Origin: Minisyncoccota bacterium
GTDB taxonomy: Bacteria > Patescibacteriota > Microgenomatia > PFEM01 > JAFGMK01
Assembly: GCA_016927565.1 (NCBI GenBank)
Contig: JAFGMK010000018.1
Location: forward strand, 13,119 to 77,118
Direction of reading: 5' to 3'
Length of the DNA stretch: 64,000 bases
Part shown: positions 25,600 through 44,920 of the stretch, piece after piece
How positions within the stretch are numbered: position 1 is the first letter of the stretch
Layout: each line of letters starts with the position of its first letter
The notes under the pieces: model-generated
Told to the model about the DNA's origin: nothing
Seen by the model: only the letters and a program-made list of their open reading frames with translations
The model's database searches: none
Translations under genes and position numbers: made by a program

Positions 25600-25627
25600 G
25601 CCAGGCGGTTACCTGGCCTTTTTTTCT
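25600..25627 (+). terminator. Rho-independent terminator
   Basis: The hairpin gccagg-cggtta-cctggc is followed by cttttttttc. Confidence 0.6.
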
Positions 25628-27420: not shown

Positions 27421-27443
27421 CTTCTAAATTAAAAAGCAAGAGT

Positions 27444-30400: not shown

Positions 30401-30758
30401 CGGCAGCAACAGCCTCTTCTTGAGTCATAATTGCCCAGTGTCCGCTTTGAGTGCGGGTGACGAGCCTGATGATAGGTAAAAAATGGAGGCTGTGAAGATC
30501 GTGGATTAAGCTGGCAACATGATCCGGGTCAGCCGCGCGATCGACACCGACCATAAGAGTGACCGGGACCCAATCGGCTCCCAAGTTGTTGGATCGTTCT
30601 CGGACAGTTTGAAAAAATCCCCGATCGCTATTATTAATCAGGTGAGTTCCAAGCATTTGCCGGGATTCGCCATAAACGTGATTGGGGAAAACCCCGCTGA
30701 GAATTAAGCCGGAAAGAACTAAAAAGCTCCTCACAAGCCAAGTTTTGATGAGTTTCAT
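27444..30758 (-). CDS. Secreted roughly 1100-aa protein with a GH clan-A (GH5-like) TIM-barrel glycoside hydrolase signature and a Cys-rich C-terminal region
   Basis: The likely start is ATG 30758 (MKLIKTWLVRSFLVLSGLILSGV, a signal peptide). IISVLNEPNV is an NEP acid/base motif, and RILTEYGPN is a TE(Y)G nucleophile motif. The C-terminal roughly 150 aa contain about 30 Cys in CxxC, CxC and CNC patterns. Confidence 0.45.
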   Translation of the reverse strand: MKLIKTWLVRSFLVLSGLILSGVFPNHVYGESRQMLGTHLINNSDRGFFQTVRERSNNLGADWVPVTLMVGVDRAADPDHVASLIHDLHSLHFLPIIRLVTRTQSGHWAIMTQEEAVAAATGLSAGIAEANVSFPDGWIPIISVLNEPNVYDEWGGTHIDKDEASFRKVTADYIRLLKEFTTRQGNFRAANAPLCTHCGSADRFWQYAADAPDGLAVLNSLQVLAFVAYDNPNCGPDCAEDPFGRRSWRWEIGVMNSFGINTNKPRILTEYGPNPSLPPSNYYSFYVDLIQHGSKYFQADGFIAVTPLPLDMCTGATFGWSASAPNLSDIRFYTFNNEELTDGCELVSESERGSMGPIELPPKRNTEWARPPVYGEGIPCRKSLGDLYNDRSPWRPFPGDADARRGAANCYDLTKLDNDNQITVYCNPAPEITDNLDWFPLPDEPNGLTHYFELLGEIKTQWIDSVRATQIPFLGNSETASRQFADYTERMSFFLSDFLRGTVYFDGEEVKDNRNADFEDQEKEYRRIQNESGPIRKLFPDPILRDNAYRRQFIRCRMGNSSDRVCEPGWQDQILKNNYSRLISNDPVHDYHLYKDITLSDLPSGISLPLTGDQKTAWLHYFPLASKEDAPAFVDLGVTSIWPDPANIDIPGENYTSRLREITVPSSLPIDYLYDAVNNHDGYYWLELWLGNPPERVASEISGEPLYELHYVQMIYIPHIPESKELSEWAAMPLTPFVYQNRDSEEYWGNDGSMTTLALDNPFSQFLNCNVNSVVRGGPGNALANDVIAGDAPGYTDRGIEFYNEWYDEVEAGAGDWGCDSEPSCVFPERHTSVFSRNTWETPEWPHAWITTKIPYLREIAKRTIGPAGLFRLMLPQFYTENIIGLIKEVAGGRLLWYELPGYGPASYEYDNNLEREENPQTHWGCCEAFEDRECGLEPDINELNFCPLGNFSWDNNPMCMASDVYDSFNCGGTAGFFIVRRECAGTECVCEENRCIDYCAGTDSCGTPCGGNPAPNCEANCNCDECLNDPDCEDSERICHSDGCGENAPGGEPPTKDSLGRDFRGWESINDTQARFYYPYIGAVDVFRKYFMNEMVPKEMVKF

Positions 30759-30954
30759 CTTGCCTCTAATTTTACAATTTTTCTGCCCGGGAAACAAGAC
30801 TTGATTGGCTGGCGCGGCAATTTGGAGAATGAACGATTGCAGGTCGATCCGGTGATTTAGGATTAAAGGATGAAAACGATTCGAGATTGGAAAAGCGCTT
30901 CCGAGATAAATCAATAAAAAAGGAAATGGGCAATTATTGGATCAGAGAGTCTAA

Positions 30955-31365
30955 TTAGTTAGTAGGTTCGGGAAGGGTAAAGATGGTGACATTGAGGCCG
31001 GTGATCAGCTTGATGGCCTGTAAAATGAGCCAAGCGGCCAGAATAACGGCTAAGCCAATCACTGCGTAAGTTAGGGTTCCGCTCGCTTTTTGAGCCTGTT
31101 TGGGGTCTTCGCCGGCAGTTAAATACTGAAAACCGCCGATTACAAACATTACTAAAACCCCCATTCCGGCCAGGGTGGTGACAACCATCACTACCCGTCG
31201 GAAAACAAACTCCAAGTCATAAATCTGAGCCGGTTGATCAGTTTGGGACCAGCCGGAGACCGGAGAGAGTTCCAAAAACAAGGTTAAAACAAAAAAAGAC
31301 CCCCAGAAGAATAATTGATTTAAAGTTTTTTTTAATTTCATTAGTTTTTTAAACCGACTCTCCAA
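30955..31365 (-). CDS. T4SS pilin-like protein (CPR T4SS_pilin/VirB2-like), paralogue 6
   Basis: A signal/TM segment is followed by FQYLTAGEDPKQAQKASG and a second TM helix (two hydrophobic helices with a divergent GEDP form of the GGDK motif). Confidence 0.6.
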   Translation of the reverse strand: MESRFKKLMKLKKTLNQLFFWGSFFVLTLFLELSPVSGWSQTDQPAQIYDLEFVFRRVVMVVTTLAGMGVLVMFVIGGFQYLTAGEDPKQAQKASGTLTYAVIGLAVILAAWLILQAIKLITGLNVTIFTLPEPTN

Positions 31366-31366
31366 G

Positions 31367-31407
31367 TTATCTCCCGTTCTTTCCGCTGGGGGGAGAACGG
31401 GAGATAA
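31367..31407 (-). terminator. Intergenic stem-loop with a 14-bp perfect stem between pilin paralogues 5 and 6; candidate attenuator or terminator
   Basis: gttatctcccgttct-(13 nt)-agaacgggagataat. A hairpin after the first pilin gene is common in pilin operons. The downstream U-tract is weak. Confidence 0.35.
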
Positions 31408-31422
31408 TCTTGGATTTGCCGC

Positions 31423-31839
31423 TTAGCTGGCAACACTCAGGTCGCTCAGGTTAAGCTGAAGCAGACTGACACCAAAGAACATCTGAATCAATTGGATAAT
31501 TGCCCAAGAACCAAAGACAATTAAAAGACCAACCAGGGCGGCAGTGATGGTGTTACGGGCGGCTTCGGTTTTGCCCTTGTCGCCACCAGAGGTGATCCAC
31601 TGGATACCGCCGTAGATCAAAAAGCCAAAAGCGATCATAGCGGCAATGACCAGTGCCAGAACAATCAAACTCCTGATCATTCGGGGAAGGCTGATGTTGC
31701 CTAAACTGGCGAATTGGTCACTTGGTGAAATGTTAAACGTCAAGTCATCGGCCAATACAGGGCTAGCGGCCGTAATCAACGGCAGAGCTGCCAAAGCCAG
31801 AACCCCGGCTGTTTTAATCAGTTTTTTCATATTTTTCAC
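31423..31839 (-). CDS. T4SS pilin-like protein, paralogue 5
   Basis: A signal peptide is followed by IQWITSGGDKGKTEAARNTITAALVGLLIVF. Confidence 0.65.
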   Translation of the reverse strand: MKNMKKLIKTAGVLALAALPLITAASPVLADDLTFNISPSDQFASLGNISLPRMIRSLIVLALVIAAMIAFGFLIYGGIQWITSGGDKGKTEAARNTITAALVGLLIVFGSWAIIQLIQMFFGVSLLQLNLSDLSVAS

Positions 31840-31941
31840 CCCCCTTCAAATTCTCAAAAAAAGACTTTATTATTTAATTTTTAAAAAAAAAGATTGCTAA
31901 GTCAACCCGGTCAGCCCGATTTCATCTAGAAAACCGGTTTT

Positions 31942-32301
31942 TTAGGAACTGACCGTCGGTAGTTTAATCTGAATTAGATTAATTCCAAATATTGCTCCGA
32001 TTGCTTTTATTATAGCAAAAAGGGAGAAGAGAATAAAGAGTCCGAGAAGCGCCTGGGCAATCTTGTCTTTGGCCTGCGCCAGCAGGGCTTTGTCACCGCC
32101 GGCGCTCATCCAGTGATAAGTACCCATTACCAGATAGAGGAAAGCGGATAAAAAGCCGATAATTAATAGGGTTGTAACGGTAATTGAAATAATTTTTCCT
32201 AAAATTTCAACCCCGTCACCGCTGCCCAGAACCGGCAGGGCTTCGTTGACAATTCCTTGAGCTAAAACAGCTGAACTAATCAAAAAGGTTAAGAGCCCCA
32301 T
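31942..32301 (-). CDS. T4SS pilin-like protein, paralogue 4
   Basis: YHWMSAGGDKALLAQAKDKIAQALLGLFILF flanked by two TM helices. Confidence 0.65.
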   Translation of the reverse strand: MGLLTFLISSAVLAQGIVNEALPVLGSGDGVEILGKIISITVTTLLIIGFLSAFLYLVMGTYHWMSAGGDKALLAQAKDKIAQALLGLFILFSLFAIIKAIGAIFGINLIQIKLPTVSS

Positions 32302-32657
32302 ATGTCTCCCAATAGGCTGCCGGGCTGAAGGATGGAAAAGCCCAAAACAAAGCCTAAGACTGAAATAATGGCGTAGGCGGCCACCAGGACAACCAGGCCG
32401 ATAACGGCTTGAACAATTTTATCTCGGGCTTTCTGGAGTTTATTTTTATCGCCGCCGGCTTCGATCCATTGGAAAGCGGCAGTGATAAAAATAAATAGGA
32501 AATAGATGCCTCCGCCAATTGTCATAATCCCGATTATTACTGAGATTACTTTTTCCAAAAGGGAAAGGGGTTCGGCCGGGTTAATGTTGGTATACATCGG
32601 GCCGACGCCGACAAAGTTGCCCAGACTGACCGAACTGGCATGCACTTTTCCGATCAT
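32289..32657 (-). CDS. T4SS pilin-like protein, paralogue 3
   Basis: FQWIEAGGDKNKLQKARDKIVQAVIGLVVLV flanked by two TM helices. Confidence 0.65.
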   Translation of the reverse strand: MIGKVHASSVSLGNFVGVGPMYTNINPAEPLSLLEKVISVIIGIMTIGGGIYFLFIFITAAFQWIEAGGDKNKLQKARDKIVQAVIGLVVLVAAYAIISVLGFVLGFSILQPGSLLGDIWGS

Positions 32658-32681
32658 ATTTTTTAAAGAAATTAATTTTGA

Positions 32682-33056
32682 TTAGTTAGGTGTATAAATT
32701 TTCGGATTGATAATCGCGGTCGGATCATTAAAGATAAGCCAGCCCAAGATAGCCGCCAGAGCCAGGGAACCGGCAACTACCGCTACTCCTAAAAGTGATT
32801 GCCAAATTTTGTTCCAGGCCTGGACAACTTTGTCCATATTGCCGTCGGCATTAAGAAAGCCGTAGCCGGCAGTGATAACATTGAAAAGAGCCCAGATACC
32901 GCTGAAGACAATGATGGTTCTTAAAAGGTTGTTAGCCAGGATAATAAGACCCTGGCCTTCAGTGCTGGGGTAAGAATCGGGGCTGATTGTTGCCCAGGGA
33001 TCGCTGATAGAACCGAAAACAGTCAGCATTCTAAAAAATAGGATTAAGAATATCAA
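32682..33056 (-). CDS. T4SS pilin-like protein, paralogue 2 (divergent motif)
   Basis: Two TM helices flank NADGNMDKVVQAWNKIWQSLLG. Confidence 0.5.
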   Translation of the reverse strand: MIFLILFFRMLTVFGSISDPWATISPDSYPSTEGQGLIILANNLLRTIIVFSGIWALFNVITAGYGFLNADGNMDKVVQAWNKIWQSLLGVAVVAGSLALAAILGWLIFNDPTAIINPKIYTPN

Positions 33057-33357
33057 TGCCGGTAATGGCGCCGATAATCTGAATTATCCAATAAGAACTA
33101 ATAATAATCAAAAAACCTACGATGGCAACGGTAACCATTCCTTTATTTTTGGCAAAACCTTCTTTTTCACCTTTGCCTGCGTTCATGATAATCCCAAACC
33201 CGCCAGCGATCAAGAGGAAGAAAAAGATAACCCCGGCGAGAATATAAATGTTGGGCAGCATTACTTGAATTAGGTGACCGAAGGAAGTAAAAACCGGCGG
33301 ATTAAGGTCCGGTTCAAAGATATCGACGCCGCCGCCGGCGAAAACAGGTTTAATCAT
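33031..33357 (-). CDS. T4SS pilin-like protein, paralogue 1 (divergent motif)
   Basis: Two TM helices flank NAGKGEKEGFAKNKGMVTVAIVGFLII. Confidence 0.5.
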   Translation of the reverse strand: MIKPVFAGGGVDIFEPDLNPPVFTSFGHLIQVMLPNIYILAGVIFFFLLIAGGFGIIMNAGKGEKEGFAKNKGMVTVAIVGFLIIISSYWIIQIIGAITGIDILNPIF

Positions 33358-33459
33358 GATTATAATTTTAACTGAAAGGAAGTTTGTTTTGCAAATTAGG
33401 AGGGGTTGTTGGCCGAAAATCTTGTTCTTTTTATTCTGGTCGATCAGACAGCTCCCTCC

Positions 33460-33494
33460 GGTCCCGGATCGAAATCCGCAGACGGTCCGGGATC
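33460..33494. repeat. Palindromic element GGTCCCGGATCG-N11-CGGTCCGGGATC, copy 2 of 3
   Basis: The arms differ from copy 1 at two symmetric positions, so that G-U pairs replace A-U. The loop AAATCCGCAGA resembles the copy 3 loop. Confidence 0.55.
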
Positions 33495-33512
33495 ATTATC
33501 TTTGTTAAAGGC

Positions 33513-34646
33513 ATGAGTAATTACGGAGTCGGATGTTTAGAAAGAGGATTTAAAAAAAATCGTGTTATACTAGCAGGCACTGTGGATGTAAAAAAATACT
33601 TGGCTTCTTATCGGGAAAGGGCTGGTCGGTTTATCGATTCCTTCTTTGAGGTTGAGGCAGAAAAAGCAGCTCTGGTTTCACCTTTTTGCGCCGAGTTAAT
33701 GAGAATCTATCAGAAGTTTGCCAAGGGGGGGAAGATGGCTCGAGGGGCGTTGGTGTGTTTAGGGTACCAATCGATTGGCGGAAAGGATCATTCAGCGATT
33801 TTAGCCCCCTCAATAGCCGTCCAGCTAATTCATTCTTTTTTATTAATCCACGATGACTGGATTGATGGAGATTTAAAGCGCTATGGCCAACCGACGGTTT
33901 ATAAACAGATTGAGAAGATTTATGGAGAACGCTTTAAAAAGGGTGATCGTCAGCGCTGGTCCGGAGGATCGGCTTTTGTTCTGGGAGACATTGGTTGCTT
34001 TTTGGCCCATAAGTTGATAGCAGATTCAGATTTTCCTGCTCGGGCAAAGGTGAGGGCGATTTCTTTCTTGTCGCAGAATCTGGTTCAGACTGGTCATGGG
34101 GAAATTTGGGACATTACCTATGATTTAGTGACTGGTTTTTCCTGGGATGAAATAGTCAAAATCCGGAAACTAAAAACTGCTTACTACACTTTGGTGATGC
34201 CGCTTCAGGTAGGGACTTGTTTGGCTGGCGGGAGTCAGGCGGAGCTTAAGGCGGCCGAAGAATACGGTTTTCCGGTGGGGATTGCTTTCCAGTTGCGGGA
34301 TGACTATCTGGGCCTGTTCGGGGATGAGGTGAAAACCGGCAAATCGGCCAGTTCGGATTTACGGGAAGGAAAAAAGACTTTAATAATTGCCAAGGCGCTT
34401 GAGATTTTAAAAGGGAAGGAAAAAAAGATTTTGAAGCAAGCTTTGGGAAATAGAGAATTGACTGGGGAACAAATTAACCAAGTAAGATTAATTATCAAAG
34501 CCTCAGGAGCGGTAGACGATTGCCAGAACCTGGCTCAAGAGCTAATTGAAAAGGGTAAAAAAGCGATTCCAAAACTAACGAGTGATAAGAGCCTGCAGGA
34601 AATTTATGCCAGTCTGGCGGACTATTTAGTCAATCGGGAGAAATAA
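33513..34646 (+). CDS. Polyprenyl diphosphate synthase (trans-isoprenyl diphosphate synthase family)
   Basis: The first Asp-rich motif LLIHDDWIDGD and the second FQLRDDYLG are present. The start was moved to ATG 33513 because the upstream in-frame extension overlaps the palindromic repeat. Confidence 0.8.
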   Translation: MSNYGVGCLERGFKKNRVILAGTVDVKKYLASYRERAGRFIDSFFEVEAEKAALVSPFCAELMRIYQKFAKGGKMARGALVCLGYQSIGGKDHSAILAPSIAVQLIHSFLLIHDDWIDGDLKRYGQPTVYKQIEKIYGERFKKGDRQRWSGGSAFVLGDIGCFLAHKLIADSDFPARAKVRAISFLSQNLVQTGHGEIWDITYDLVTGFSWDEIVKIRKLKTAYYTLVMPLQVGTCLAGGSQAELKAAEEYGFPVGIAFQLRDDYLGLFGDEVKTGKSASSDLREGKKTLIIAKALEILKGKEKKILKQALGNRELTGEQINQVRLIIKASGAVDDCQNLAQELIEKGKKAIPKLTSDKSLQEIYASLADYLVNREK

Positions 34647-34684
34647 AAAGATAACTCAGTTTCTTTAACAATCCAGGATTATCC

Positions 34685-34720
34685 GATCCCGGAAGGGAAA
34701 TCTGCAGACGATTCGGGATC
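34685..34720. repeat. Degenerate copy 3 of the GATCCCGG palindromic element
   Basis: GATCCCGGAAGG-GAAATCTGCAGA-CGATTCGGGATC, with the conserved flank TCCGATCCCGGA shared with copy 1. Confidence 0.4.
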
Positions 34721-34853
34721 GGGGAGAACTAATTACAAAGCAAACAGCCCAGGGGTGTTTGCAGAATTAATGCTAATCACTCCTGCAAGGTGGCACCCTG
34801 CCATCGGCGGGGATAACTTCTTGAAGTGTGTGATGGTTAGGAGGGATTGAAGA

Positions 34854-35426
34854 ATGCGGGAGAGCATAACCAACCGGGTGATTCAAAAAGCGATTTTCGG
34901 TGATAAGACGGCCCAGGGGGAAATTTTTAAAGGCTATAGGAAACGGGTTTTGAATTTTATTCTTCAGCGGGTTGAAAATTTGGAGGATGGGGAGGAAATT
35001 TTGCAGGAAACTTTTATTTCCGTTTTTGAGGCTTTGCCCTTTTATTCAGCTCGTTCAACATTGCTGACCTGGATTTGCGGCATTGCCCGGCATGAGGTGG
35101 CTGATTTTTACCGCAAAAAAAAGATAAAAACGGTTGTTTTTTCCTTTTTTCCCGGCTTGGAAGGGTTTGTCAGTCGAGCCTTATCGCCGGAGGGGATTCT
35201 GGAGCAGAAAGAAGCCAGGGAAAAAATTAAAAAAATTCTGGCGCTTTTGGCCGAAGGATATGAGCAGGTTCTGCGACTAAAGTATATTGAGGGCTTTTCG
35301 GTTGCTCAGATTGCTCAGGAACTGGATGAAACTCAAAAAGCAATCGAATCCCGGTTGACCCGGGCCCGGGAGGCCTTCGGGAGGCTTTATGTCGTTATCA
35401 ATTCAAAAAGCCAAGAAGGAGATTAG
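34854..35426 (+). CDS. ECF-type RNA polymerase sigma factor (sigma-70 regions 2 and 4)
   Basis: Region 2 ILQETFISVFEALPFY...TWICGIARHEVADFYRKK and region 4 GFSVAQIAQELDETQKAIESRLTRAR are present. Confidence 0.8.
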   Translation: MRESITNRVIQKAIFGDKTAQGEIFKGYRKRVLNFILQRVENLEDGEEILQETFISVFEALPFYSARSTLLTWICGIARHEVADFYRKKKIKTVVFSFFPGLEGFVSRALSPEGILEQKEAREKIKKILALLAEGYEQVLRLKYIEGFSVAQIAQELDETQKAIESRLTRAREAFGRLYVVINSKSQEGD

Positions 35427-35790
35427 TTTTTTAAAAAGATTGTTTTTATTAGTAGGCTTCCGGCAGGTCTATTTTTTTTTGAAAAATCTTCTGGGGATGA
35501 TAATTCATCCCAGGTTGACAACCGCTAAGATCTTAAAAAACCGTGATTACTCCCAAGCCTTTTTAGTTTTTGGCCTGCCTATTGGTCTTTGGTTGGTGCT
35601 TTTGGGTGTTAGCTTTGTTGGCTGGTATTTTCTGCGGCCAAGTAACTGGTTTTTTTATTTAGGCTTGGGCTTTTTTCTGACGTTTTCTCTTTTTCTGCTG
35701 GTATTAGTGCTGTACGACTTTTATTGGGTGGGGAAGTACTTTGAAGGAAAAAGGAGAAAAGAGGAAAAAAAAGGGGGGTGGAGGAGTTAA
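35389..35790 (+). CDS. Small polytopic membrane protein downstream of the ECF sigma; possible anti-sigma factor
   Basis: Three or four TM helices; it overlaps the end of the sigma gene. Confidence 0.3.
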   Translation: MSLSIQKAKKEISFLKRLFLLVGFRQVYFFLKNLLGMIIHPRLTTAKILKNRDYSQAFLVFGLPIGLWLVLLGVSFVGWYFLRPSNWFFYLGLGFFLTFSLFLLVLVLYDFYWVGKYFEGKRRKEEKKGGWRS

Positions 35791-36090
35791 TTGTGGGAGT
35801 TGCGCAGTTTTATCGGTTGAGAAACCAATTTCTTCGTTTGGAAGGCGAAGAATGTTTAAGTGAGGGTTGTCGGGATGGGGAAGGAAAGGGCGGTTGCAAG
35901 ATGTTTCCGCCTCATGATGTTTGTCGGAGGTGTGGAGGAACTGATCCTCAAAGGGTCTACAGATTAGATGGAGATAAACCAACGCTGCGGGAAGTCCGGT
36001 TTCCGGTTTTAGCGCGAGTTGGCGGACGAGAGAGGGGCGGATAAGGGCTTTGTTTTTTTTATAAAGCTGCTTGTATTTAAGGAGAAAAGA

Positions 36091-36852
36091 ATGGAAAAGG
36101 GAATCGGGGCTTTTGATCCTGCTCTTTGGCCAGATCGATCAAAAGGTTATAAAGAATTAGGTTGGGTAAATGCTCGGGGGCCGCTTGAAAAGATGGTGGA
36201 GTTGATTGCGCCTAGGGGAAATGAGATTATTTTGGATGTTGGAACCGGGACTCAGGCGATTCCTAAAGAACTGGCGCCTTTATTGCCTGATGGTTCTATT
36301 CTGGCTTTTGATCTTTCTGCAGATATGTTAAGAGCTGATGGGACGACGAGTGCTGATTTGTTTAGAGCTGATGCTCATCAGATTCCTTTGGCTGAGGGAA
36401 GTGTTGATGTGGTGACAGCAAGAATGATCCTTCACCATTTAGAAAAACCCGATGTGGCTTTGGAAGAGATGTGCCGGGTGTTGGTTCCTGGTGGATTTAT
36501 GGTGGTTAGTGAATATGTGGCTATAGATGAAGAGATTTGGACGTTCGAAAGGGGAGTTTTTGATATTAAGGAGCCAGGAAGACATCTTTGGACTGGGGAT
36601 CAATTGGCATCTTTAATATCTTCGACTTTGGGAGTGGCGGTGGAATTGGACTATGCAATGATGCCGAGATATAGTGTGAGAGATTGGATGGGGAAGAGCG
36701 GATTGTCACCGGAAGTTCAAGAAAGAGTTTTGAATTGTTACCTTTGCGCACCTCAAACAATTGTTAAAAAGATGGGAATTGTTTATTCTGATGGTGATGC
36801 TTTGGTTGATCGTTCTTTTGGTTTTGTTAGAGCGTTCAAACAAGATGAATAA
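36091..36852 (+). CDS. Class I SAM-dependent methyltransferase (Methyltransf_11/UbiE-like)
   Basis: Motif I ILDVGTGTQAI and the post-I acidic DLSADML are present, as is VDVVTARMILHHL. The start was set at ATG 36091, which has an AGGAGAAAAG Shine-Dalgarno sequence. Confidence 0.7.
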   Translation: MEKGIGAFDPALWPDRSKGYKELGWVNARGPLEKMVELIAPRGNEIILDVGTGTQAIPKELAPLLPDGSILAFDLSADMLRADGTTSADLFRADAHQIPLAEGSVDVVTARMILHHLEKPDVALEEMCRVLVPGGFMVVSEYVAIDEEIWTFERGVFDIKEPGRHLWTGDQLASLISSTLGVAVELDYAMMPRYSVRDWMGKSGLSPEVQERVLNCYLCAPQTIVKKMGIVYSDGDALVDRSFGFVRAFKQDE

Positions 36853-37447
36853 AAAGCAATTACAACAGATTGAAGAACTGGCCAGAGTCTTTTATAAAAA
36901 GACGGGCAATTACCATGATTGGGGTCATGTCTTGGCGGTAAAGAAGCATATTTTAAATTTACTGAGGGAGATTGACAGAGCCAATGAAAATCTTTTGTTG
37001 GCGGCATGTTATCTTCACGACATTGGTCGCTCGGTTAAGGATGAAGGTCATCCGGCTGAAAGCGTCCGTCTAGCAAGCCCCTTGCTTAAGAAAGTTGGTC
37101 TTAGTAAAGCGGAAACAGATATTATTTTAGATGCGATTGAGTTTCACACAGCCCCTGAGATTTGTCAGGCAAAGACCTTGGAGGCAAAGATTCTTTTTGA
37201 AGCAGATAAGCTGGAGATTCTTTCAGTGGCTGGTTTTTTGCGGACCCTACTGTTTGTAATTGAAGAAAGGAAGATGAGTTTGTCAGCAGGGCTGGATTTT
37301 CTTTGGAGTTATGCCCGAGAGGTACAAAAGAAATATCTTTGGACAGAGAGAGCTAAGAGTGTTGCCAAAAGGGAGATGAAAGTACTTGGTCAGGTTTATA
37401 TCTTTTATAAAAGATGGCAAAGCCGATATTGGAAACAAAAGGAATAA
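36845..37447 (+). CDS. HD-domain phosphohydrolase
   Basis: H...HD motif: WGHVLAV...LAACYLHDIGR. The start was set at ATG 36845. Confidence 0.65.
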   Translation: MNKKQLQQIEELARVFYKKTGNYHDWGHVLAVKKHILNLLREIDRANENLLLAACYLHDIGRSVKDEGHPAESVRLASPLLKKVGLSKAETDIILDAIEFHTAPEICQAKTLEAKILFEADKLEILSVAGFLRTLLFVIEERKMSLSAGLDFLWSYAREVQKKYLWTERAKSVAKREMKVLGQVYIFYKRWQSRYWKQKE

Positions 37448-38202
37448 CTGTGAAAATTAGAAGCCAGTTAAAACTGGATCCGAAAAAAATTCCTGCCCAT
37501 GTGGCGATTATTATGGACGGGAACCGGCGTTGGGCGGCTAAACACGGTTTGGGGCCGGTCGATGGCCATTGCCAAGCGGCTCAAGAAGCGATTGAGCCCC
37601 TGATCAAAGCAGCAATTGGGTTGGGGATTAAGTATTTAACTCTCTGGGCGTGGAGCACCGAAAACTGGCGCCGGGATAAAATTGAAGTGAACGGGATCAT
37701 GAAGCTTTTCAGTAATGGTCTTAAAGACAATCTGGAGCGGTTTCAGAAAATGGGAGTGAGGTTGAATTACCTGGGTGATTTGTCCCGCTTTTCGAAGGCA
37801 ATCAGCCGGCGGGTTTTAAATCTGGTTAAGAAATCAAAAGAGAACAAGGTGATCACCGTGACTTTTGCGCTAAACTATGGCGGCCGGGATGAGATTTTAA
37901 GAGCGGTTAAAAGGCTGATTAAGACGGGAAGAAAAGTTTCTGAGATTGATGAGAATCTTTTTGCCAGTTGCCTTGATACTGCCGGAATGCCTGATCCGGA
38001 TTTGGTCATCAGGACCGGTGGCGCCAATCGTCTTTCCGGATTTTTACCCTGGCAGGCAGTTTACTCGGAGTTTTACTTTACGCCGGTCCTGATGCCGGAT
38101 TTTACTCCCGGGAAGCTTAAGAAGGCGATTGCTTCTTTTCAGAAAAGGGAACGCCGCTTTGGCGGCGGCAGTTTTTCTGTTTACCGGAAAAATAAGGGAT
38201 AG
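37414..38202 (+). CDS. uppS: Undecaprenyl diphosphate synthase (cis-prenyltransferase)
   Basis: HVAIIMDGNRRWA...YLTLWAWSTENWRR...IRTGGANRLSGFLPWQAVYSEFYF is the canonical UppS sequence. Confidence 0.9.
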   Translation: MAKPILETKGITVKIRSQLKLDPKKIPAHVAIIMDGNRRWAAKHGLGPVDGHCQAAQEAIEPLIKAAIGLGIKYLTLWAWSTENWRRDKIEVNGIMKLFSNGLKDNLERFQKMGVRLNYLGDLSRFSKAISRRVLNLVKKSKENKVITVTFALNYGGRDEILRAVKRLIKTGRKVSEIDENLFASCLDTAGMPDPDLVIRTGGANRLSGFLPWQAVYSEFYFTPVLMPDFTPGKLKKAIASFQKRERRFGGGSFSVYRKNKG

Positions 38203-38221: not shown

Positions 38222-38839
38222 TTAAAGAGATTCTGGAACTCCGGAAATGGTTTTGATGATTTGGTAAAGCCAGTAAGAAGCAATAACGATGGCGAAGCCA
38301 ATGACGGCGTTGGTTAAAATCTTTTGGCCGGCCGCGGCCGATTTGGGATCGCCGCTGGAGGTCAAAAGCTGGAAACCGCCCTTGATGATAAAGACCAAAA
38401 GAATCAGGCCGGCGGCAACGAACAGATAGGGTAAGATTTGACCAATTACGCCACCCAGGCTCTCATTGGCAAAGGTAAAGCCGGGGGTTTTGAGGAAATC
38501 AGGCAAGTCATCGTAGTCCGGCAACCCCGAACCTATCGGAGAGCCAAGTGTTGGAGTCGGGAGAACTGGAGTGGGAGTAGGATCGCTGGCTAGCTGGCAG
38601 ATACCGCGCGGGTTGGTATCCCAACAAACTTCAACGCCGACCTCGCAGGAAATGGGACCACTGCTTCCTGGAGTTATGGTGTAGCAGTCGTTTTGACTGG
38701 GTCGGTAATACCAGTTTTCCGGACAGCAGAATCCGCCGACGGTGGCTTGAGCCTGCGGCTTGGTTAAAAGAGTAATCAATGGAAAAATAACCAAAAGCAA
38801 AAAGATTATTTTTGCGAAGAAGAAGAATTTCTTTTTCAT
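38222..38839 (-). CDS. Pilin-domain fusion: signal peptide, Cys-rich ectodomain, then a C-terminal T4SS-pilin-like module
   Basis: The C-terminus ILPYLFVAAGLILLVFIIKGGFQLLTSSGDPKSAAAGQKILTNAVIGFAIVIASYWLYQII aligns with the pilin paralogues at 30955-33357. The N-terminal 110 aa contain 7 Cys. Confidence 0.55.
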   Translation of the reverse strand: MKKKFFFFAKIIFLLLVIFPLITLLTKPQAQATVGGFCCPENWYYRPSQNDCYTITPGSSGPISCEVGVEVCWDTNPRGICQLASDPTPTPVLPTPTLGSPIGSGLPDYDDLPDFLKTPGFTFANESLGGVIGQILPYLFVAAGLILLVFIIKGGFQLLTSSGDPKSAAAGQKILTNAVIGFAIVIASYWLYQIIKTISGVPESL

Positions 38840-38860
38840 TGTCTTGATAAATCCGTAAGC

Positions 38861-39619
38861 TTAATCCAATCCCGGTATCTGCAATATGTTGACGCCGATG
38901 AGCCTTAAAATGAAGATGGCAAAGATGATTAACAGGAGTCCGCTGATGGCGGCGGTTAAAAGCTCTCTGCCGGCCTGGACCCGCTCAGGTTTGCCGGAAG
39001 CAGTCAAAATCATAAAGCCGGCAATGACCATAAGAATAAAGGCAACTCCACCGGCAATGGCCATGGCGCGACCGATGAGCCAGGGACTAAACTGGTCAGC
39101 TCTGGTCGGAATGCAACCCAAGGCGGTCTTGGTTCCGGTAAGCTCGCCATTAATGAGACATTGAACATCGGGTAATTTTCTGGCTTGGCATTCACAACCA
39201 ATGCAGTTTACGGTATCAATGATGACCGGCCGGGTGTCTTCGGGACAGCGGCCGACCTCGTCGTTTTGGATGGGAACACAGCCGAAAAAGGTTTTGTTAG
39301 TTCCGCAGCCGCCGCCTTCGGGAGTGCGGGTCGGAGTGGGCTTAGGAACAGCACAGGCGCCGGCATTGTCAGGGGTCTGTTCACAAATTTCCCCGGGGTC
39401 GCAATTAATGGGTTGTGAAGTTCCCGGAGTTCGACCAATGCAGCGGCCGGAGCTAGGAGAATAATAATACTCGGACGCGATATCACAACAAGGGTCACCA
39501 GGAGCGGCTTGAGCCTGAGATTTTATAACTGAACCCATCAGTGGGAGGAGAATTAAGAGCCAAACAGCGGTTTTCGTTAAAAACGAAACAATCCTTTTCA
39601 TATGCTTTAATTTTAACAT
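38861..39619 (-). CDS. Pilin-domain fusion: signal peptide, Cys-rich ectodomain (about 14 Cys), then a C-terminal T4SS-pilin-like module
   Basis: The C-terminus LIGRAMAIAGGVAFILMVIAGFMILTASGKPERVQAGRELLTAAISGLLLIIFAIFILRLI matches the pilin module. Confidence 0.55.
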   Translation of the reverse strand: MLKLKHMKRIVSFLTKTAVWLLILLPLMGSVIKSQAQAAPGDPCCDIASEYYYSPSSGRCIGRTPGTSQPINCDPGEICEQTPDNAGACAVPKPTPTRTPEGGGCGTNKTFFGCVPIQNDEVGRCPEDTRPVIIDTVNCIGCECQARKLPDVQCLINGELTGTKTALGCIPTRADQFSPWLIGRAMAIAGGVAFILMVIAGFMILTASGKPERVQAGRELLTAAISGLLLIIFAIFILRLIGVNILQIPGLD

Positions 39620-39711
39620 AAAAAAGATTCCAGATACAAGAGGGAAGCGAAGACCGCCCTCAAAAAGATGGTATTATAAAAAAGGCAGAATAGTCAAATA
39701 GCAAAAAGGCG

Positions 39712-39889: not shown

Positions 39890-41671
39890 TTGATGAATAA
39901 ATCCCTAAAAGCAGTTAAAAAAGTTTTTCTCCTAAGCCTGATTGCTTTGTTTTTTTGGGCCCTTTTTTCTTTGGAAGAAGTCAGGCAAAATTTTGTTTTT
40001 GCCGCCACTTGCGACACGGCCGATTGCGGCAGTATTGAAGAGTGTCAGCAAAAACAAAACGAATGTTGGGAGATTTGGGGCTTGTATGACGTGGCTAATG
40101 AAAAAAACAAAGAGGAGCTGGCAGTTTTAAAAAAAAGACTGGATGAAATTGTAATTGGCCTGTCAAAGGCCCAGGATCAGATCGATCAATTGGAAAAAAG
40201 CATTGTCCGGCAGGAAGAGGTTTTAAAAAGCAAAGAAAAAGTTTTTGCTTTCCGGGTTCGCAGTTTTTATAAAAGAAGCTATCAATTTTCCCCTTTGCTG
40301 GTTTTTTTAGCATCGAACACAGCCTCTTCGTTGACCCGGGAACTTTCTTACCGCCAAGCGGCGGCAGACGAGGACAGAAAGGCGATTGCCAGTCTCTCGA
40401 TCAGTTTGAATAATCTTGAGAAAGACAAGCAGTCACTGGAGGAAAAAGGAGCCTGGCTGGAGAAAACTCAGGCTGAAATCAGTCAGACAACTTTGTTTTT
40501 AGATCGGGAAGTTGCCAAAGCCGAGGCCTACTTGGGCAGTCTGAAAGGGAGAATTGCCCAATTATCAGCCAAACAAGAGGCTTTATTAGCGGCCAGAGCC
40601 GGGACTTTTACCACCAGTGTGGGCGAGGTGCCGATTTCAAATATTCCCTGTTCCGGTCCGCCCGGCAGTCCTTCTTTTTGTGACCCGGGCGGGGGAGATT
40701 GGTTTGGGGCCTTTTCTTTCGGCGGCTGGACTCACCGGAAAGGGATGAGTCAGTATGGCGCTAAGGGCCGGGCTGAAGCCGGTCAAAATGCCAGCCAGAT
40801 TCTTCAGGCTTATTACGGTCGGGAACCGGTCGGCAAAGACACCGGAGGAGCAATCCAGGTAACTGGAATTGGCGCCCTGGATTTTGAGAATTACTATTTG
40901 ATGGGAATTGCCGAAATGCCTTCCGGTTGGTCTCAGGAGGCTCTCAGGGCTCAGGCGATTGCCGCCCGGAGCTTTGCCTACCGGTATAAGAGCCAGGGTC
41001 GGGCGATTTGTACTACTCAGGCATGCCAGGTTTTTTCCAGTTCTAAAGCTAATAATCCGCCGTCAGCCTGGCGGCAGGCGGTTGAATCAACCCGGGGTCA
41101 GGTGATTGAAGAAGTGGTGGCTTTTTATTCTTCGACGGCCGGCGGGTATTTAACTTATCCGACCGGTCTTTGGGATACAATCGACGGTCAGGGCGGGCCG
41201 GGATTTGCTTCCCGAGCTTGGGAAAGCAAGGCCGGTTCACCCTGGTTTTATTCCAGTTGGTATACTCAGAATTTCACTGCCAGCTCGGCCAAGTGCGGCC
41301 GATCTCACCCCTGGCTAACCGCTGAGGAAATGGCTGATATCTTAAATGCCTGGCAGGTTTTAACTCATCAGGAAAATGACAGCCGGATTTTGCCGGAAAC
41401 TATTAATCAGTGTCCGATAGGCGGGGTTTCAGGCAGTCCTTATTCCAAAATTGAGTTAAAGGAACGGGCGGAAAGTCTTGGCCGCGGTTTTTCCCGTGTT
41501 TCCGGAGTAACGGTAATTTATAGTCAAAACGGAGAGACCAGTTCGGTTAATCTGGAAACTGACCGGGGTTCAGTTAGCCTTGCCGGCTCAGAGTTTAAAC
41601 AGGCTTTTAATCTTCGAGCGCCCGGTTATATTGCTATCCGCAGTCCTCTATTTAGTATTGAGAGGAAATAG
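39890..41671 (+). CDS. SpoIID/LytB-domain protein (amidase enhancer family) with an N-terminal anchor and coiled coil
   Basis: YYLMGIAEMPSGWSQEALRAQAIAARSFAY matches the SpoIID core. The N-terminus has a TM helix followed by a heptad-rich coiled-coil region. Confidence 0.7.
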   Translation: MMNKSLKAVKKVFLLSLIALFFWALFSLEEVRQNFVFAATCDTADCGSIEECQQKQNECWEIWGLYDVANEKNKEELAVLKKRLDEIVIGLSKAQDQIDQLEKSIVRQEEVLKSKEKVFAFRVRSFYKRSYQFSPLLVFLASNTASSLTRELSYRQAAADEDRKAIASLSISLNNLEKDKQSLEEKGAWLEKTQAEISQTTLFLDREVAKAEAYLGSLKGRIAQLSAKQEALLAARAGTFTTSVGEVPISNIPCSGPPGSPSFCDPGGGDWFGAFSFGGWTHRKGMSQYGAKGRAEAGQNASQILQAYYGREPVGKDTGGAIQVTGIGALDFENYYLMGIAEMPSGWSQEALRAQAIAARSFAYRYKSQGRAICTTQACQVFSSSKANNPPSAWRQAVESTRGQVIEEVVAFYSSTAGGYLTYPTGLWDTIDGQGGPGFASRAWESKAGSPWFYSSWYTQNFTASSAKCGRSHPWLTAEEMADILNAWQVLTHQENDSRILPETINQCPIGGVSGSPYSKIELKERAESLGRGFSRVSGVTVIYSQNGETSSVNLETDRGSVSLAGSEFKQAFNLRAPGYIAIRSPLFSIERK

Positions 41672-41695
41672 TATAATCAAAGCTAAAGAGAAAAA

Positions 41696-42328
41696 ATGAC
41701 TAAGCAGAACCCGAAGGCGGTTATTGAGGATAAGCGGCCGGAATTAGAAAAAGTCAAAGAAGAGAAAAAGGCCCATCCTATGGCTGCCTTTGTTCCGGTG
41801 CCCAGCAATTGGCGATTTGAAACCCAGGAAAAGAAAGAAAAGATTATTCTTTTGCTCCGGCGCCATTGGTTTACTAATCTGAGCTGGTTTCTGGCCGGAG
41901 TCTTCTTTTTTATTTTACCCGGAATTCTTTTCTTATTTGTTTCTTTCGATTTTATGCCGTTGCGTTTTCGAGTTGTCGGATTGGTGATTTGGTATTTAGT
42001 TTTAGCCGGATATTTTTTTGAACGCTTCTTAAATTGGTATTTTAATGTTTTTATCATTACCGATGAAAGGATTATTGATTTTGACTTTTTTGGTCTGATT
42101 TACAAGGAAGTCTCTGATGCTAAAATTGAAGATATTCAGGATGTGACCTATCGGGTAGGCGGTTTCGTCAGGAATTTGTTTGATTTCGGGGATGTTTTTT
42201 TTCAAACCTCGGCCGAACTTCCAAGGTTTGAGTTTCGTGATGTTCCTCAACCGGCCCGGGTAGCCAGAGTTCTGCGGGAGTTAATTACGGAAGAGGAAAT
42301 CGAAAAAATGGAAGGCAGGATCAGATAA
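41696..42328 (+). CDS. Membrane protein with a bacterial PH (bPH_2/YdbT-like) domain
   Basis: Two TM helices are followed by NVFIITDERIIDFDFFGLIYKEVSDAKIEDIQ. Confidence 0.5.
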   Translation: MTKQNPKAVIEDKRPELEKVKEEKKAHPMAAFVPVPSNWRFETQEKKEKIILLLRRHWFTNLSWFLAGVFFFILPGILFLFVSFDFMPLRFRVVGLVIWYLVLAGYFFERFLNWYFNVFIITDERIIDFDFFGLIYKEVSDAKIEDIQDVTYRVGGFVRNLFDFGDVFFQTSAELPRFEFRDVPQPARVARVLRELITEEEIEKMEGRIR

Positions 42329-42344
42329 TAATCTTTTAAAAAAT

Positions 42345-42596
42345 ATGACAGAATCACCTTTTGCTGAAATCTCGGGAGGATTGGTTGGTCTGAACCTTGG
42401 ATTATGGGGGCTGGTGAAGTTGGGGGTAGTCCTCGGTCTGCTTATCTATGTTGGTTTTGCCGTGATGATCTTGAGACAGGTGGGTTTAATGAACCAGTCT
42501 TTGAGTGCCGACCTCAGTTTGCGATTGAACTATTTAGCCCGTTTTTATTTGACAGCCACAATTATTGTTTTTTTTATCGCCCTCATCTTCCTTTGA
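42345..42596 (+). CDS. Small membrane protein (two TM helices)
   Basis: An 83-aa hydrophobic ORF in the same orientation as its neighbours. Confidence 0.3.
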   Translation: MTESPFAEISGGLVGLNLGLWGLVKLGVVLGLLIYVGFAVMILRQVGLMNQSLSADLSLRLNYLARFYLTATIIVFFIALIFL

Positions 42597-42605
42597 AAAA
42601 AGAGA

Positions 42606-44432
42606 ATGCTGAATTTTTGTTTTGAGATTGCCAAAATTGTGGGGGCTTCAACTGACCGGGCTTGGGCTCAGGTTCATACTTTTTTGCCGATCCAATCAGA
42701 AAAACTTGAGAAAAGGGGTCAGCTTCTGGCTGTTTTTTCCCTGAGGAAAACCGGGGAAGGGAGTGAAATTGCCGCTTTCGGGCGGGAGGTGATTACCCGA
42801 TTTCATGAAGAGTATTTTGGCCGTTTGGGGGGCTCGATTCATCGCTGTCTCAGACAGGCGGTTGCCAAAGTGGCGGCAGAGGCCGCCGGAGGTTTTGAGA
42901 TTGAAATCGTGGCGGCTGTTTTGGGATCGGGAGCGGTTTTTTTGGTTGCCTTTGGTCCGGGGAAAGTTTTTTTAAAACGGAATGGTTCTTTAGCAGTTAT
43001 TTGTAGCGGCAAAAGAGGAAAGATTGTTTCTTCCAGCGGTTATCCTCAAAAAGGCGACTTTTTCTTTTTGACTAATCGGCGCCTGGGGGAAAATCTGGCT
43101 GAGGGAACTTTACAGGCAGTTTTGGGAGGATGTCTGGTTCGGGAATCAGCCGAAATTTTAGCCCCCTTTGCCTATCAAAAAAGAGGTCTTTCGACTCCGG
43201 CAGGAGTAGTTGCTGAGATAAGGTCGGCAGAAAGGATAATCGAGGAAGAGAAAAAACAAAAGAGAAAAAAAAGCCGCTTGCTAAAAATAAAACCGGCTCT
43301 CAAAAAACCGTTGTTTTTTAAGTCAGCGGCTGCCAATAAAAGGAGAAAATCTGAAGTGGCTTTCGGAGTGGTTTTTGCTTCAGCTCTTCTTTTAGCAGCT
43401 AGTTTGATCCGGGGCGGTTTAAAGAAGGCCGGATTTTGGCAGCCGTCGGAAGACTCTGTGATTAGTCAACAGATCCAAGTTAAAATTAACGATGCCCAGT
43501 CTTTGATTGACCTTAACCCCACTCGGTCGAAACAGCTTTTTTTGGAAGCCGAGCAGATGCTGGATGATTTGACTGACAGGAGAGCGGCAGAGATTATCCC
43601 GGAATTCAGGCAGGTGATTCTGACAGGCCTGAGGCTGATATCGGGAGAACACGTCCTGGACCGGCTGCCCCTTTTTTTTGATTTGGAAATTATTAAAGAA
43701 AACGGCCGGGGCGAGAGTTTGGCTCTGGGAGGTGAAAGCTTGTTGGTCTTGGATATCGGCAGTCAGGTTATTTATCAGCTGGAAATTTCAGACAGGAAGG
43801 GAGAAATTTTGGCCGGAGGGGAGATTTTGGAGGGAGCGGTTGGTTTGACGGTTTCGCTTCAGGAAATCTTTGTCCTTACCGCCCGAGGGGTAGTTCAGAT
43901 GGGAATAAGAGATGATGGTGTGGTGCAGATAATAGAAGCGGATAGTAATTGGCAGGAGCCGGTTAGTCTTAATTTCTTCGGAGACAATCTTTACCTTTGG
44001 GACAGAGGCCGTTTGGATTTATATCGTTATCCGGCAGTTGAGTCGGGCTTCGGACCGCGGCAATTTTGGCTTAGGGAAAAAAGAGAAAATTTAAAAGGAG
44101 TTGTTTCGGTCGCGATTGATGGCGCGGTTTGGTTCTTGAAAGAAGACGGGGAAGTTCTAAAATTTACTCGCGGGACGGCAGAAGATTTTTCGGTGGTTGG
44201 TCTTGAAGAGCCGTTTGCTTCTCCCCGGAAAATTTTTACCGGGCCGGATCTGGAGCGGCTTTATATTTTGGATTCAGAAAACCGGCGGGTAGTCATTTTG
44301 GGAAAAGACGGCCGGTATGAATCCCAGTATAAATGGTCGGAAGAAAGAATTGAAGATCTGGTTGTTTCGGAAGAGAGAGGGAAAATTTGGTTGTTGGGGG
44401 AAAATAAGATTTACGAGATGGAGTTGGAATGA
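42606..44432 (+). CDS. Hypothetical 608-aa protein with one central TM helix and a repeat-containing (beta-propeller-like) C-terminal half
   Basis: A long ORF. C-terminal repeats of the type LYLWDRGRLDLYRY, VWFLKEDGEVLKF and LYILDSENRRVVILGKDGRY are present. Confidence 0.4.
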   Translation: MLNFCFEIAKIVGASTDRAWAQVHTFLPIQSEKLEKRGQLLAVFSLRKTGEGSEIAAFGREVITRFHEEYFGRLGGSIHRCLRQAVAKVAAEAAGGFEIEIVAAVLGSGAVFLVAFGPGKVFLKRNGSLAVICSGKRGKIVSSSGYPQKGDFFFLTNRRLGENLAEGTLQAVLGGCLVRESAEILAPFAYQKRGLSTPAGVVAEIRSAERIIEEEKKQKRKKSRLLKIKPALKKPLFFKSAAANKRRKSEVAFGVVFASALLLAASLIRGGLKKAGFWQPSEDSVISQQIQVKINDAQSLIDLNPTRSKQLFLEAEQMLDDLTDRRAAEIIPEFRQVILTGLRLISGEHVLDRLPLFFDLEIIKENGRGESLALGGESLLVLDIGSQVIYQLEISDRKGEILAGGEILEGAVGLTVSLQEIFVLTARGVVQMGIRDDGVVQIIEADSNWQEPVSLNFFGDNLYLWDRGRLDLYRYPAVESGFGPRQFWLREKRENLKGVVSVAIDGAVWFLKEDGEVLKFTRGTAEDFSVVGLEEPFASPRKIFTGPDLERLYILDSENRRVVILGKDGRYESQYKWSEERIEDLVVSEERGKIWLLGENKIYEMELE

Positions 44433-44920
44433 CAGGCAATAGGGGCAAGGTAATGAGGAAAGGAAAAAAGAGTTTTATGAAAGTTTTTAACCGGCGGGCA
44501 AAATATGATTATTATCTTCTGGAAAAATTTGAAGCGGGAATTGTTTTGACCGGAGCTGAAGTTAAATCGGTCAGAGAGAATAAAATTAAGCTGGCAGAAA
44601 GTTTTGTTCGGTTAAGAGAGGATGGGGCTTATCTGGTTAACGCTCATATTTCTCCCTACCGATATGCCCGAAACCAGTCTTATCAGCCAACCAGATCCCG
44701 CCGCCTTCTGCTTCATAAAAAACAAATTCTTTCTTTGATGAAAAAGATGGAGGGCCGGGGTTTGGCTTTGGTTCCGTATAGTTGTTATCTTAAAAGAAAC
44801 AAAATTAAACTGGGGATTGCTTTGGCTCGGGGAAAGAAAAAATGGGACAAGAGGGAGGCAGTTAAAAAGAGAGATTTAAAAAGAGAAGCGGAAAGGGAAC
44901 TTCGGGCCTATGAGAGTTGA
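44429..44920 (+). CDS. smpB: SsrA-binding protein SmpB
   Basis: NRRAKYDYYLLEKFEAGIVLTGAEVKSVRENKIKLAESFV...HKKQI is the SmpB sequence. The true start is probably an internal ATG, at 44453 or 44477. Confidence 0.9.
   Translation: MTGNRGKVMRKGKKSFMKVFNRRAKYDYYLLEKFEAGIVLTGAEVKSVRENKIKLAESFVRLREDGAYLVNAHISPYRYARNQSYQPTRSRRLLLHKKQILSLMKKMEGRGLALVPYSCYLKRNKIKLGIALARGKKKWDKREAVKKRDLKREAERELRAYES

Follow-up and report, generated by a model that had tools for sequence, protein, structure and literature searches.

Why should a pilin of a type IV secretion system (T4SS) carry a cysteine-rich domain in front of its membrane-inserted hairpin? This question is raised by two adjacent open reading frames (ORFs), termed A and B, which are located in a stretch of 64,000 nucleotides from a Minisyncoccota bacterium (GenBank assembly GCA_016927565.1, contig JAFGMK010000018.1, positions 13,119 to 77,118 of the forward strand), henceforth referred to as the window, with coordinates counted from its first letter. 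A large part of bacterial diversity is accounted for by Patescibacteria, whose cultivated members live as obligate epibionts, and in the one species that was studied genetically both the T4SS and its pilin array have proved essential for this way of life. The combination of a conserved, presumably machine-docking module with an orphan head that varies from genome to genome and a fixed position at the side of a pilin array thus provides a concrete and testable candidate for host contact, and a folded extra domain on a VirB2-type pilin would bear on how conjugative-type filaments are built and decorated. Our analysis has revealed that proteins of the B-type form a real and widespread family, and it suggests a role of this family in host recognition.

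Arrays of short VirB2-like pilins have previously been described in Patescibacteria (PMC10633639; PMC12102498; PMC12857230), and in the epibiont Southlakia such an array is essential for epibiotic growth (Wang et al., 2023, Cell; PMC10633639). An initial sequence-only reading of our window had proposed that A and B are minor or tip pilins fused to disulfide-stabilized heads and that this fusion was not known to have been described. The latter is borne out by the same literature on Patescibacterial T4SS pilins, in which no head-bearing members of the Pfam family PF18895 are reported.

Architecture of the two proteins

ORF B (38861-39619, minus strand) encodes a protein of 252 residues, the leader head-pilin of the array, and it is followed after 21 bp by ORF A (38222-38839, minus strand; 205 residues), the second pilin of the array, which here also carries a head. 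Both proteins share the architecture that had been recognized in the sequence-only reading, with a signal peptide preceding a Cys-rich ectodomain and a C-terminal hairpin resembling VirB2-like T4SS pilins. In B, a Sec-type signal peptide (residues 1-38; 39506-39619, minus strand, as for all parts of A and B listed below), consisting of a hydrophobic segment at residues 9-32 and an AxA site, is predicted to be cleaved between KSQAQA and AP. It leads into a module with six cysteines in the arrangement CC-x14-C-x12-C-x5-C-x9-C (mod1, residues 39-89; 39353-39505), a short linker rich in proline and threonine (residues 90-100; 39320-39352) and a second Cys-rich module with seven cysteines including a CxxCxC motif (residues 101-153; 39161-39319), whose predicted local distance difference test (pLDDT) values in an AlphaFold2 (AF2) model are below 50 and which by eye resembles the region preceding the neck of a relative (P0007). 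A neck spanning C154-x14-C169 with the sequence TALGCIP (residues 154-173; 39101-39160), predicted to form a beta-hairpin just outside the membrane, connects this ectodomain to the pilin hairpin (residues 174-252; 38864-39100), in which helices at residues 174-206 and 211-245 are joined by the loop SGKPERVQAGRE and followed by the tail NILQIPGLD.

The organization of A is simpler. Its signal peptide (residues 1-32; 38744-38839), with predicted cleavage between KPQAQA and TV, precedes a single 6-Cys module with the spacing CC-x12-C-x12-C-x6-C-x8-C, which is paralogous to mod1 of B (residues 33-81; 38597-38743), a Cys-free linker rich in Pro, Thr, Gly and Asp that is predicted to be disordered (residues 82-127; 38459-38596) and the pilin hairpin (residues 128-205; 38225-38458), with helices at residues 128-159 and 165-199 and the intervening loop TSSGDPKSAAAGQK. 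In both proteins, every cysteine is located past the signal peptide and ahead of the first helix of the C-terminal hairpin, and the inter-helix loops contain Lys or Arg, as evident from hydropathy and sequence analysis. The mature ectodomains encompass about 95 residues in A (residues 33-127) and about 140 in B (residues 39-178), which replaces the range of 110-170 residues that had been estimated initially. Similarly, the initial count of 7 and about 14 cysteines holds for B, which contains 14, but not for A, which contains six (at positions 38, 39, 52, 65, 72 and 81), and of the described spacings, CC is found in both proteins whereas CxxC and CxC are restricted to B (C139-x2-C142-x-C144).

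B is 100% identical to the NCBI entry MBN1263433.1 ('Candidatus Pacebacteria', phylum Minisyncoccota/Patescibacteria), where the start is called at M7, resulting in a protein of 246 residues. The same reading frames of A and B are found in L015, an assembly of this organism that was obtained independently. Since the frames are identical in this assembly and in the NCBI record, they do not originate from an assembly artefact, a possibility that was rejected because the described architecture recurs in both assemblies, which are independent, and in about 95 homologues.

Homology of the C-terminal hairpin to T4SS pilins

The initially noted alignment of the C-terminal modules with the tandem pilins of the window reflects true homology. 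In A, this module is recognized by PF18895 (T4SS_pilin) with E=2.6e-8 and 34.3 bits, above the curated cut-off of 26.6 bits, whereas B alone remains under this cut-off (E=3e-4, 21-22 bits). The relationship of B becomes apparent at the level of its family, where 93 of the 96 sequences of the alignment match PF18895 at E<=0.01 and where a profile-profile comparison (hhalign) of the C-termini of 31 members with the six tandem pilins of the window results in a probability of 97.9% and E=4e-13 over 73 columns. The aligned region spans the polar motif G-F-x-x-[LIM]-T-[AS]-x-G-[DNK]-P in the loop between both helices, and the hairpin of B has preserved the loop and tail motifs of the pilins. As both the match to PF18895 and the profile-profile match are significant and the latter includes the polar loop, the resemblance is not a consequence of generic transmembrane composition. 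Such a composition effect would be at the heart of an explanation in which A and B are generic Cys-rich secreted or membrane proteins unrelated to the secretion system, as might be suspected from the low Pfam score of B, the non-specific fold matches that helical hairpins produce and the distance of 4.9 kb that separates the two genes from the array in the window. The significance of the profile-profile match, the score of A above the Pfam cut-off and the direct adjacency, found in other genomes, of equivalent genes to pilin arrays and VirB6-like genes have essentially excluded this explanation.

The proteins also display the other hallmarks of PF18895 pilins, namely a signal peptide and two hydrophobic helices with a short polar or basic loop in a locus that contains VirB4 and a pilin array. 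In AF2 predictions, calculated from alignments of 96 sequences for B and 12 for A, the C-terminal modules fold into two long helices connected by a short loop, with block-mean pLDDT values of 91-95 in B and 80-91 in A. In the neck region of B, strands are predicted at residues 115-133 (mature numbering) and the block-mean pLDDT climbs from 79 to 93. The proposed structure prediction has thus provided a confident model of the hairpins but no confident fold for either head, and in A values do not reach 50 at mature residues 27-77 and lie between 50 and 56 towards the end of the linker. Since the pLDDT of the heads is mostly below 50, a fold search with these regions would not be meaningful. The hairpin of A is closest to head-less pilins of 118-123 residues (P0002 with 51% and P0003 with 45% identity).

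Three alternative assignments of sequence features were rejected. A and B are not type IV pilins of the kind found in type IV pili or type II secretion systems: they lack the prepilin motif, in which cleavage after G is followed by F/M-x-x-x-E, and instead contain AxA signal peptides and helices at the C-terminus, which defines them as T4SS-type pilins. The ALGC sequence of the neck does not constitute a lipoprotein lipobox, as it is located 40-320 residues past the signal peptide and is preceded by polar sequence. Finally, a C-terminal sorting signal is incompatible with the conserved IPGF tail, which follows the helix at the extreme C-terminus and thus shows the reverse of the order found in PGF-CTERM and PEP-CTERM signals.

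Leader pilins combine a conserved anchor with a hypervariable head

To what extent is the architecture of B peculiar to this organism? In the database, we identified 95 Patescibacterial relatives of B with lengths of 139-412 residues, the size of the family thus being at least 95 proteins. The motif [TS][AGS][ILVA]GC[ILVFM] is present in 93 of the 95, at a distance of about 88 residues from the C-terminus, and in these 93 proteins it is preceded by 43-324 residues containing 2-40 cysteines (median 12). In every one of them (93/93), a partner cysteine is found 6-25 residues, most commonly 11, upstream of the neck cysteine, and we infer that the neck, with its consensus C-x10-12-TALGC-IP, forms a disulfide-stapled beta-hairpin. 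The heads have a median length of 141 residues and a Cys content of 8.5%.

The conservation of both parts is strikingly different. Among the 74 members whose heads comprise 60 or more residues, the pilin modules align in all 2701 pairs with a median identity of 52%, whereas the heads align in only 27 of these pairs (1%), with 47 of the 74 being singletons. Similarly, the 127-residue head of B has retrieved only itself in an exhaustive phmmer search against 1.84 billion cluster representatives. Between genomes, the B-type modules have a median identity of 51% compared to 33% for the array pilins; the average identity within a Patescibacterial pilin array was reported to be 25% (PMC12102498). 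B is thus a typical member of a distinct subfamily of leader pilins defined by a well-conserved hairpin, a neck bracketed by cysteines and a hypervariable head, and the fusion of a head is a trait of this family rather than a peculiarity of the investigated genome. In two relatives (P0008 and P0012), a Cys-rich domain of about 100 residues ending with WCFCQ follows the second helix, either replacing the one in front of the first helix or in addition to it, which agrees with a location of both hairpin termini outside of the membrane.

The nearly invariant TALGC neck would also be expected of a processing site, and it has to be considered whether the Cys-rich region is a pro-segment that acts as intramolecular chaperone or inhibitor of assembly and that is removed by cleavage near the neck. 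VirB2, TraA and TrbC pilins are synthesized with long leaders and subsequently processed by proteolysis, which would provide a precedent for such maturation. A disposable segment is, however, not expected to extend over 300 residues with up to 40 cysteines and to differ in nearly every genome, the invariant neck cysteine always has an upstream partner tying both parts of the protein together, and in A the neck motif is lacking altogether. We thus consider the cleavage of a pro-segment as improbable.

Position of leader pilins in other genomes

For the analysis of gene order, loci were collected from long contigs and from a scan of a genome collection, which was carried out with an alignment of six sequences and yielded seven loci, and they were annotated with profiles of the window's own proteins. 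All 13 distinct loci, which were found by their similarity to A or B, contain one or two B-type genes, and in 12 of the 13 these are located directly beside a divergent block encoding a SpoIID-domain protein and proteins of about 210 and about 610 residues. SmpB comes next in these 12 loci, with the exception of L007, whose flank does not extend further. The B-type gene of L003, L008 and L010-L013 is directly followed by a second pilin and then by 5-8 short pilins, while six short pilins come after the second pilin and UppS of L007. Further downstream, the short pilins of L003, L007, L010, L011 and L013 are succeeded by a gene for a large protein and a homologue of the 555-residue membrane protein of the window described below, which in L005 adjoins the head pilin. 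PrgI is also found in L003. Short pilins and a VirB6-like gene come after the head pilins in each locus whose flanking sequence is long enough.

A comparable order is found in the window, where an inserted block on the plus strand (33384-38202), encoding a polyprenyl synthase, an extracytoplasmic function (ECF) sigma factor, a small membrane protein, a methyltransferase, an HD protein and UppS, separates A and B from the rest of the array, which consists of six tandem short pilins of 108-138 residues (30955-33357, minus strand). UppS, in some cases together with further genes, follows the first two or three pilins in the window and in L001, L006, L007 and L014 but is not found at this position in L003, L008 and L010-L013. 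A and B are thus members 1 and 2 of the array, which were split off by inserted envelope and isoprenoid genes. The initially described distance of about 5 kb from the array, beyond the isoprenoid and ECF-sigma genes, is therefore accurate as a measure (4.9 kb), but the separation is secondary, since the equivalent positions are contiguous with the array elsewhere.

Four of the loci (L009, L011, L012 and L013) reside on contigs of metagenome-assembled genomes that display the typical Patescibacterial synteny of T4SS and pilin genes but carry the title 'uncultured Gammaproteobacteria bacterium' in public databases, which probably reflects mis-binning or mislabelling.

Origin of the head of A

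Whereas the head of B is a property of its family, that of A appears to have a different history. The module of A matches mod1 of B with E=8e-8 and 43% identity over 51 residues in a BLASTP comparison, and searches with local phmmer, with a hidden Markov model built from the two sequences and with a regular expression of the Cys pattern did not detect this shared module in any of the other sequences searched. The search for the Cys pattern of the N-terminal domains that had been proposed from the initial inspection has thus not extended the module beyond A and B; one further match of the regular expression, in a protein of L012 with 52 cysteines, lacks sequence similarity. A does not contain the neck motif of the leader pilins. 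P0003, one of its closest relatives, occupies in L014 the last pilin position ahead of UppS and is therefore its positional orthologue. The second-position pilins of L001, L006 and L007 are head-less, while those of L010 (269 residues, 12 Cys) and L012 (519 residues, 52 Cys) do bear heads, illustrating that the gain of a head at this position is recurrent. In the simplest reading, which is suggested by these comparisons, A would be an ordinary second-position pilin onto which the first 6-Cys module of B was copied locally, together with a long linker rich in proline and threonine. As its nearest relatives are head-less and its module matches only that of B, the head of A would be a recent gain.

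Relationship to known pilins and tip proteins

The hairpin, the T4SS context next to dnaA and dnaN and the occurrence as tandem divergent paralogues relate A and B to the PF18895 arrays of Patescibacteria. The pilins described there contain about 100-140 residues with no mention of extra domains, whereas A and B, with 205 and 252 residues, contain disulfide-rich ectodomains of 95-140 residues and thus constitute a variant rather than ordinary single-domain members. What further sets the B-type proteins apart as a subfamily is their stronger conservation, the neck bracketed by cysteines, the hypervariability of the head and the fixed location next to SpoIID; neither this subfamily with its TALGC neck nor its position is mentioned in PMC12102498, PMC10633639 or PMC12857230 or was detected in full-text literature searches. 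As far as could be found, the head-bearing B family would be the first family of VirB2-type pilins with a folded extra domain.

A signal peptide, a hairpin of two helices and a basic loop are also common to the VirB2, TraA and TrbC pilins (PF04956) and to archaeal conjugation pilins, and the location of both termini outside of the membrane in VirB2, TraA and TrbC defines a topology that would equally be expected for A and B. To our knowledge, none of these proteins contains a folded N-terminal domain. In a Pfam search (E<=1), neither A nor B matches PF04956. A relative of A from an ENA metagenome (P0004, 351 residues) contains three consecutive pilin modules with the loops SSGDPTKV, SAGDPNKL and SSGDPTKV, and as it matches both PF18895 and PF04956, it constitutes a covalently fused pilin array. 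A weak relationship is also found to NCBIfam NF045849 (the Mbov_0395 family of pilin-like proteins of Mycoplasma integrative and conjugative elements), with A (E=5e-4) and two of the short pilins of the window (4e-7 and 1.5e-4) scoring far below the cut-off of 40 bits and B showing no match. Members of this pilin-like family of monoderm conjugation, unlike A and B, contain only about 80 residues and no head. The link of A and B to VirB2/TraA-type pilins rests on the naming in Pfam, on these weak NCBIfam matches and on the structure-based annotation in the literature (PMC10633639).

With respect to its proposed role, a low-copy distal subunit in contact with the host resembles the VirB5, TraC and CagL tip proteins, although only by analogy. 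VirB5 proteins are soluble helical proteins and not pilin fusions, and VirB5/TraC families of Pfam were matched neither by A and B (E<=1) nor by any member of the B family (E<=0.01). A bulky binding domain attached to a polymerization module is a principle realized in FimH, which combines a lectin with a pilin domain, and in bulky minor pilins of type IV pili or type II secretion systems such as GspK and PilX. In these cases, the subunits are restricted to the tip since the bulky domain cannot be packed in the shaft. The fold, the assembly machine and the origin of these proteins are, however, unrelated to A and B, which use a membrane hairpin with an N-terminal disulfide-rich head.

A putative role in host contact

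Taken together, these features lead us to favor a reading, to which we assign a probability of about one half, in which the B-type protein acts as a tip or minor pilin in host contact while A contributes a further, lineage-specific subunit with a head. In such a scenario, the signal peptide would be cleaved, leaving the head outside of the membrane, where it would be oxidatively folded with three disulfide bridges in A and seven in B. Export and disulfide formation would fit the even number of cysteines and the enrichment of MdbA-like thiol-disulfide oxidoreductases and VKOR in genomes of the candidate phyla radiation (CPR; bioRxiv 10.1101/335083). The basic loop would face the cytoplasm, as in VirB2/TraA pilins, and the hairpin would dock into the pilin-assembly site of the T4SS. 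Solved conjugative pili grow by the addition of subunits at the base, and the termini of their subunits point outward. As a head of 10-15 kDa would be hard to accommodate on each subunit with its N-terminus directed outward, the head pilins might be incorporated either sparsely or first, and would in that case end up at the distal end of the filament. There, the hypervariable head could contact the surface of the host cell in place of VirB5-type tip proteins or separate adhesins. We favor this assignment because a bulky head suits the distal end and because Patescibacteria lack both classes of proteins, VirB5 being absent from monoderm and Patescibacterial T4SSs (PMC12857230) and PrgB-like adhesins not being detected in Patescibacteria (PMC12102498).

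Several observations weigh against this assignment. A pilus assembled by a Patescibacterial T4SS has been discussed as a possibility, with none reported (PMC12857230), and the polymerization of PF18895 proteins is an assumption, as is the retention of the head in the mature forms of A and B, which we infer. The label of an adhesin derives from location, Cys content and hypervariability of heads that are not confidently folded in either of the AF2 models, with a pLDDT mostly below 50 except for one small beta-hairpin at 50-70, and that do not match any domain in a Pfam search of the B family, including known adhesins. Besides the Pfam score of B under the cut-off, a Foldseek search of the B model against the PDB has returned non-specific helical matches only (best E about 1), with 8dfu as best pilin match at a weak E=2.1, and profile searches of the PDB with three alignments did not detect pilins. 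Neither of the two approaches has thus revealed a direct relation in sequence or fold to the solved conjugative pilins. Finally, gene order is weak evidence for the order of assembly, and since similarity to A or B was the criterion by which the loci were retrieved, their gene order informs on the location of B-type genes but not on the fraction of T4SS loci that contain one.

Some of the same observations would fit an alternative in which the proteins do not polymerize but serve in surface display, with the hairpin acting as membrane anchor that is perhaps docked to the T4SS and the heads as surface receptors, adhesins, enzymes or inhibitors. The architecture of A and B is equally compatible with both functions, a T4SS pilus has never been observed in CPR bacteria (PMC12857230), and members of the family with heads of 300-420 residues or with C-terminal domains, like bulky heads in general, should be hard to fit into the lattice of a conjugative pilus. 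A mere anchor should not, in contrast, require a hairpin that is better conserved than the array pilins and that has kept their loop and tail motifs, and the fixed position of the gene beside the pilin array is equally unexpected, and we thus regard surface display as the main rival, though less probable than the favored role. If the heads were simple surface proteins or cleaved pro-segments, our finding would be reduced to a refinement of the annotation of PF18895. Returning to the favored role as tip or minor pilin, we tentatively propose an extension in which the B-type leader pilin might be a determinant of host specificity. In this proposal, a pilin-anchored, disulfide-knotted hypervariable receptor-binding head would nucleate and cap the filament of a monoderm T4SS and replace VirB5 or separate adhesins, and the exchange of heads together with the local duplication of modules, as proposed from B to A, would be the driving force of host switching in obligate epibionts.

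Genomic setting

The gene that diverges from B, located at 39890-41671 on the plus strand, encodes the SpoIID-domain protein described above as conserved neighbor of the leader head-pilin, which contains an N-terminal Cys cluster of its own (CDTADCGSIEECQQKQNEC). As a SpoIID-like lytic transglycosylase, this protein could remodel peptidoglycan in partnership with the pilin system and substitute for VirB1. In the window, the block extends over 39890-44920 (plus strand) and contains, besides the SpoIID-domain protein, genes for proteins of 210 and 608 residues and SmpB; in other genomes, a DUF5657 gene is located between the 210- and 608-residue genes. The intergenic region of 270 bp shared by B and SpoIID contains a promoter-like site (39668-39697, minus strand; 9/12 matches, not enriched over shuffles), and a GC-rich hairpin with a T-rich tract (38152-38170, minus strand) is found 50 nt downstream of A within the 3' end of the convergent uppS. 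Both were identified in consensus scans, whose enrichment over shuffled sequences is too low to carry weight.

On the other side of the array, a gene for a secreted protein of 1156 residues (27444-30914, minus strand) is located between the short pilins and a VirB6-like gene. The last 150 residues of this protein are extremely rich in cysteine and show no similarity to the heads of A and B, and the protein does not belong to any known family; large genes are found at the same position in other loci, such as one encoding 813 residues in L003. The adjacent gene (25753-27420, minus strand) encodes a polytopic membrane protein of 555 residues without a match in Pfam or NCBIfam, which probably represents a highly divergent VirB6/TrbL, a component that was reported to be scarce in Microgenomatia in a 2025 survey. 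Both genes are part of the core of a chromosomal, monoderm-type T4SS beside dnaN (13299-30914, minus strand except for two genes at 22401-25574 on the plus strand), which further includes a giant M23 peptidase, VirB4, a TrsD-like protein and PrgI/VirB3. VirB4 seems to be split (18190-21278, minus strand), with a TrsD-like protein of 366 residues located directly upstream of a P-loop VirB4 of 653 residues. The former matches the N-terminal part of VirB4 models, which agrees with the abundant TrsD described for Patescibacteria.

The T4SS locus begins right after dnaN. The preceding region (7036-13221) spans the replication origin and contains the minus-strand genes jag, yidC and rnpA, followed by dnaA (10394-11752) and dnaN (12082-13221), with the minimum of the cumulative GC skew near 12 kb. 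A T4SS locus adjoining dnaA and dnaN corresponds to the Patescibacterial arrangement described by Quinonero-Coronel et al., 2025 (PMC12102498). Towards the opposite end of the window, past 58 kb (57952-64000), the GC content falls from about 0.43 to 0.34-0.36. This change starts at a tRNA-Asn gene (57952-58027), which overlaps with the 3' end of a gene encoding a large serine recombinase (57998-59497, minus strand), and the region beyond 58 kb may be an integrated mobile element.

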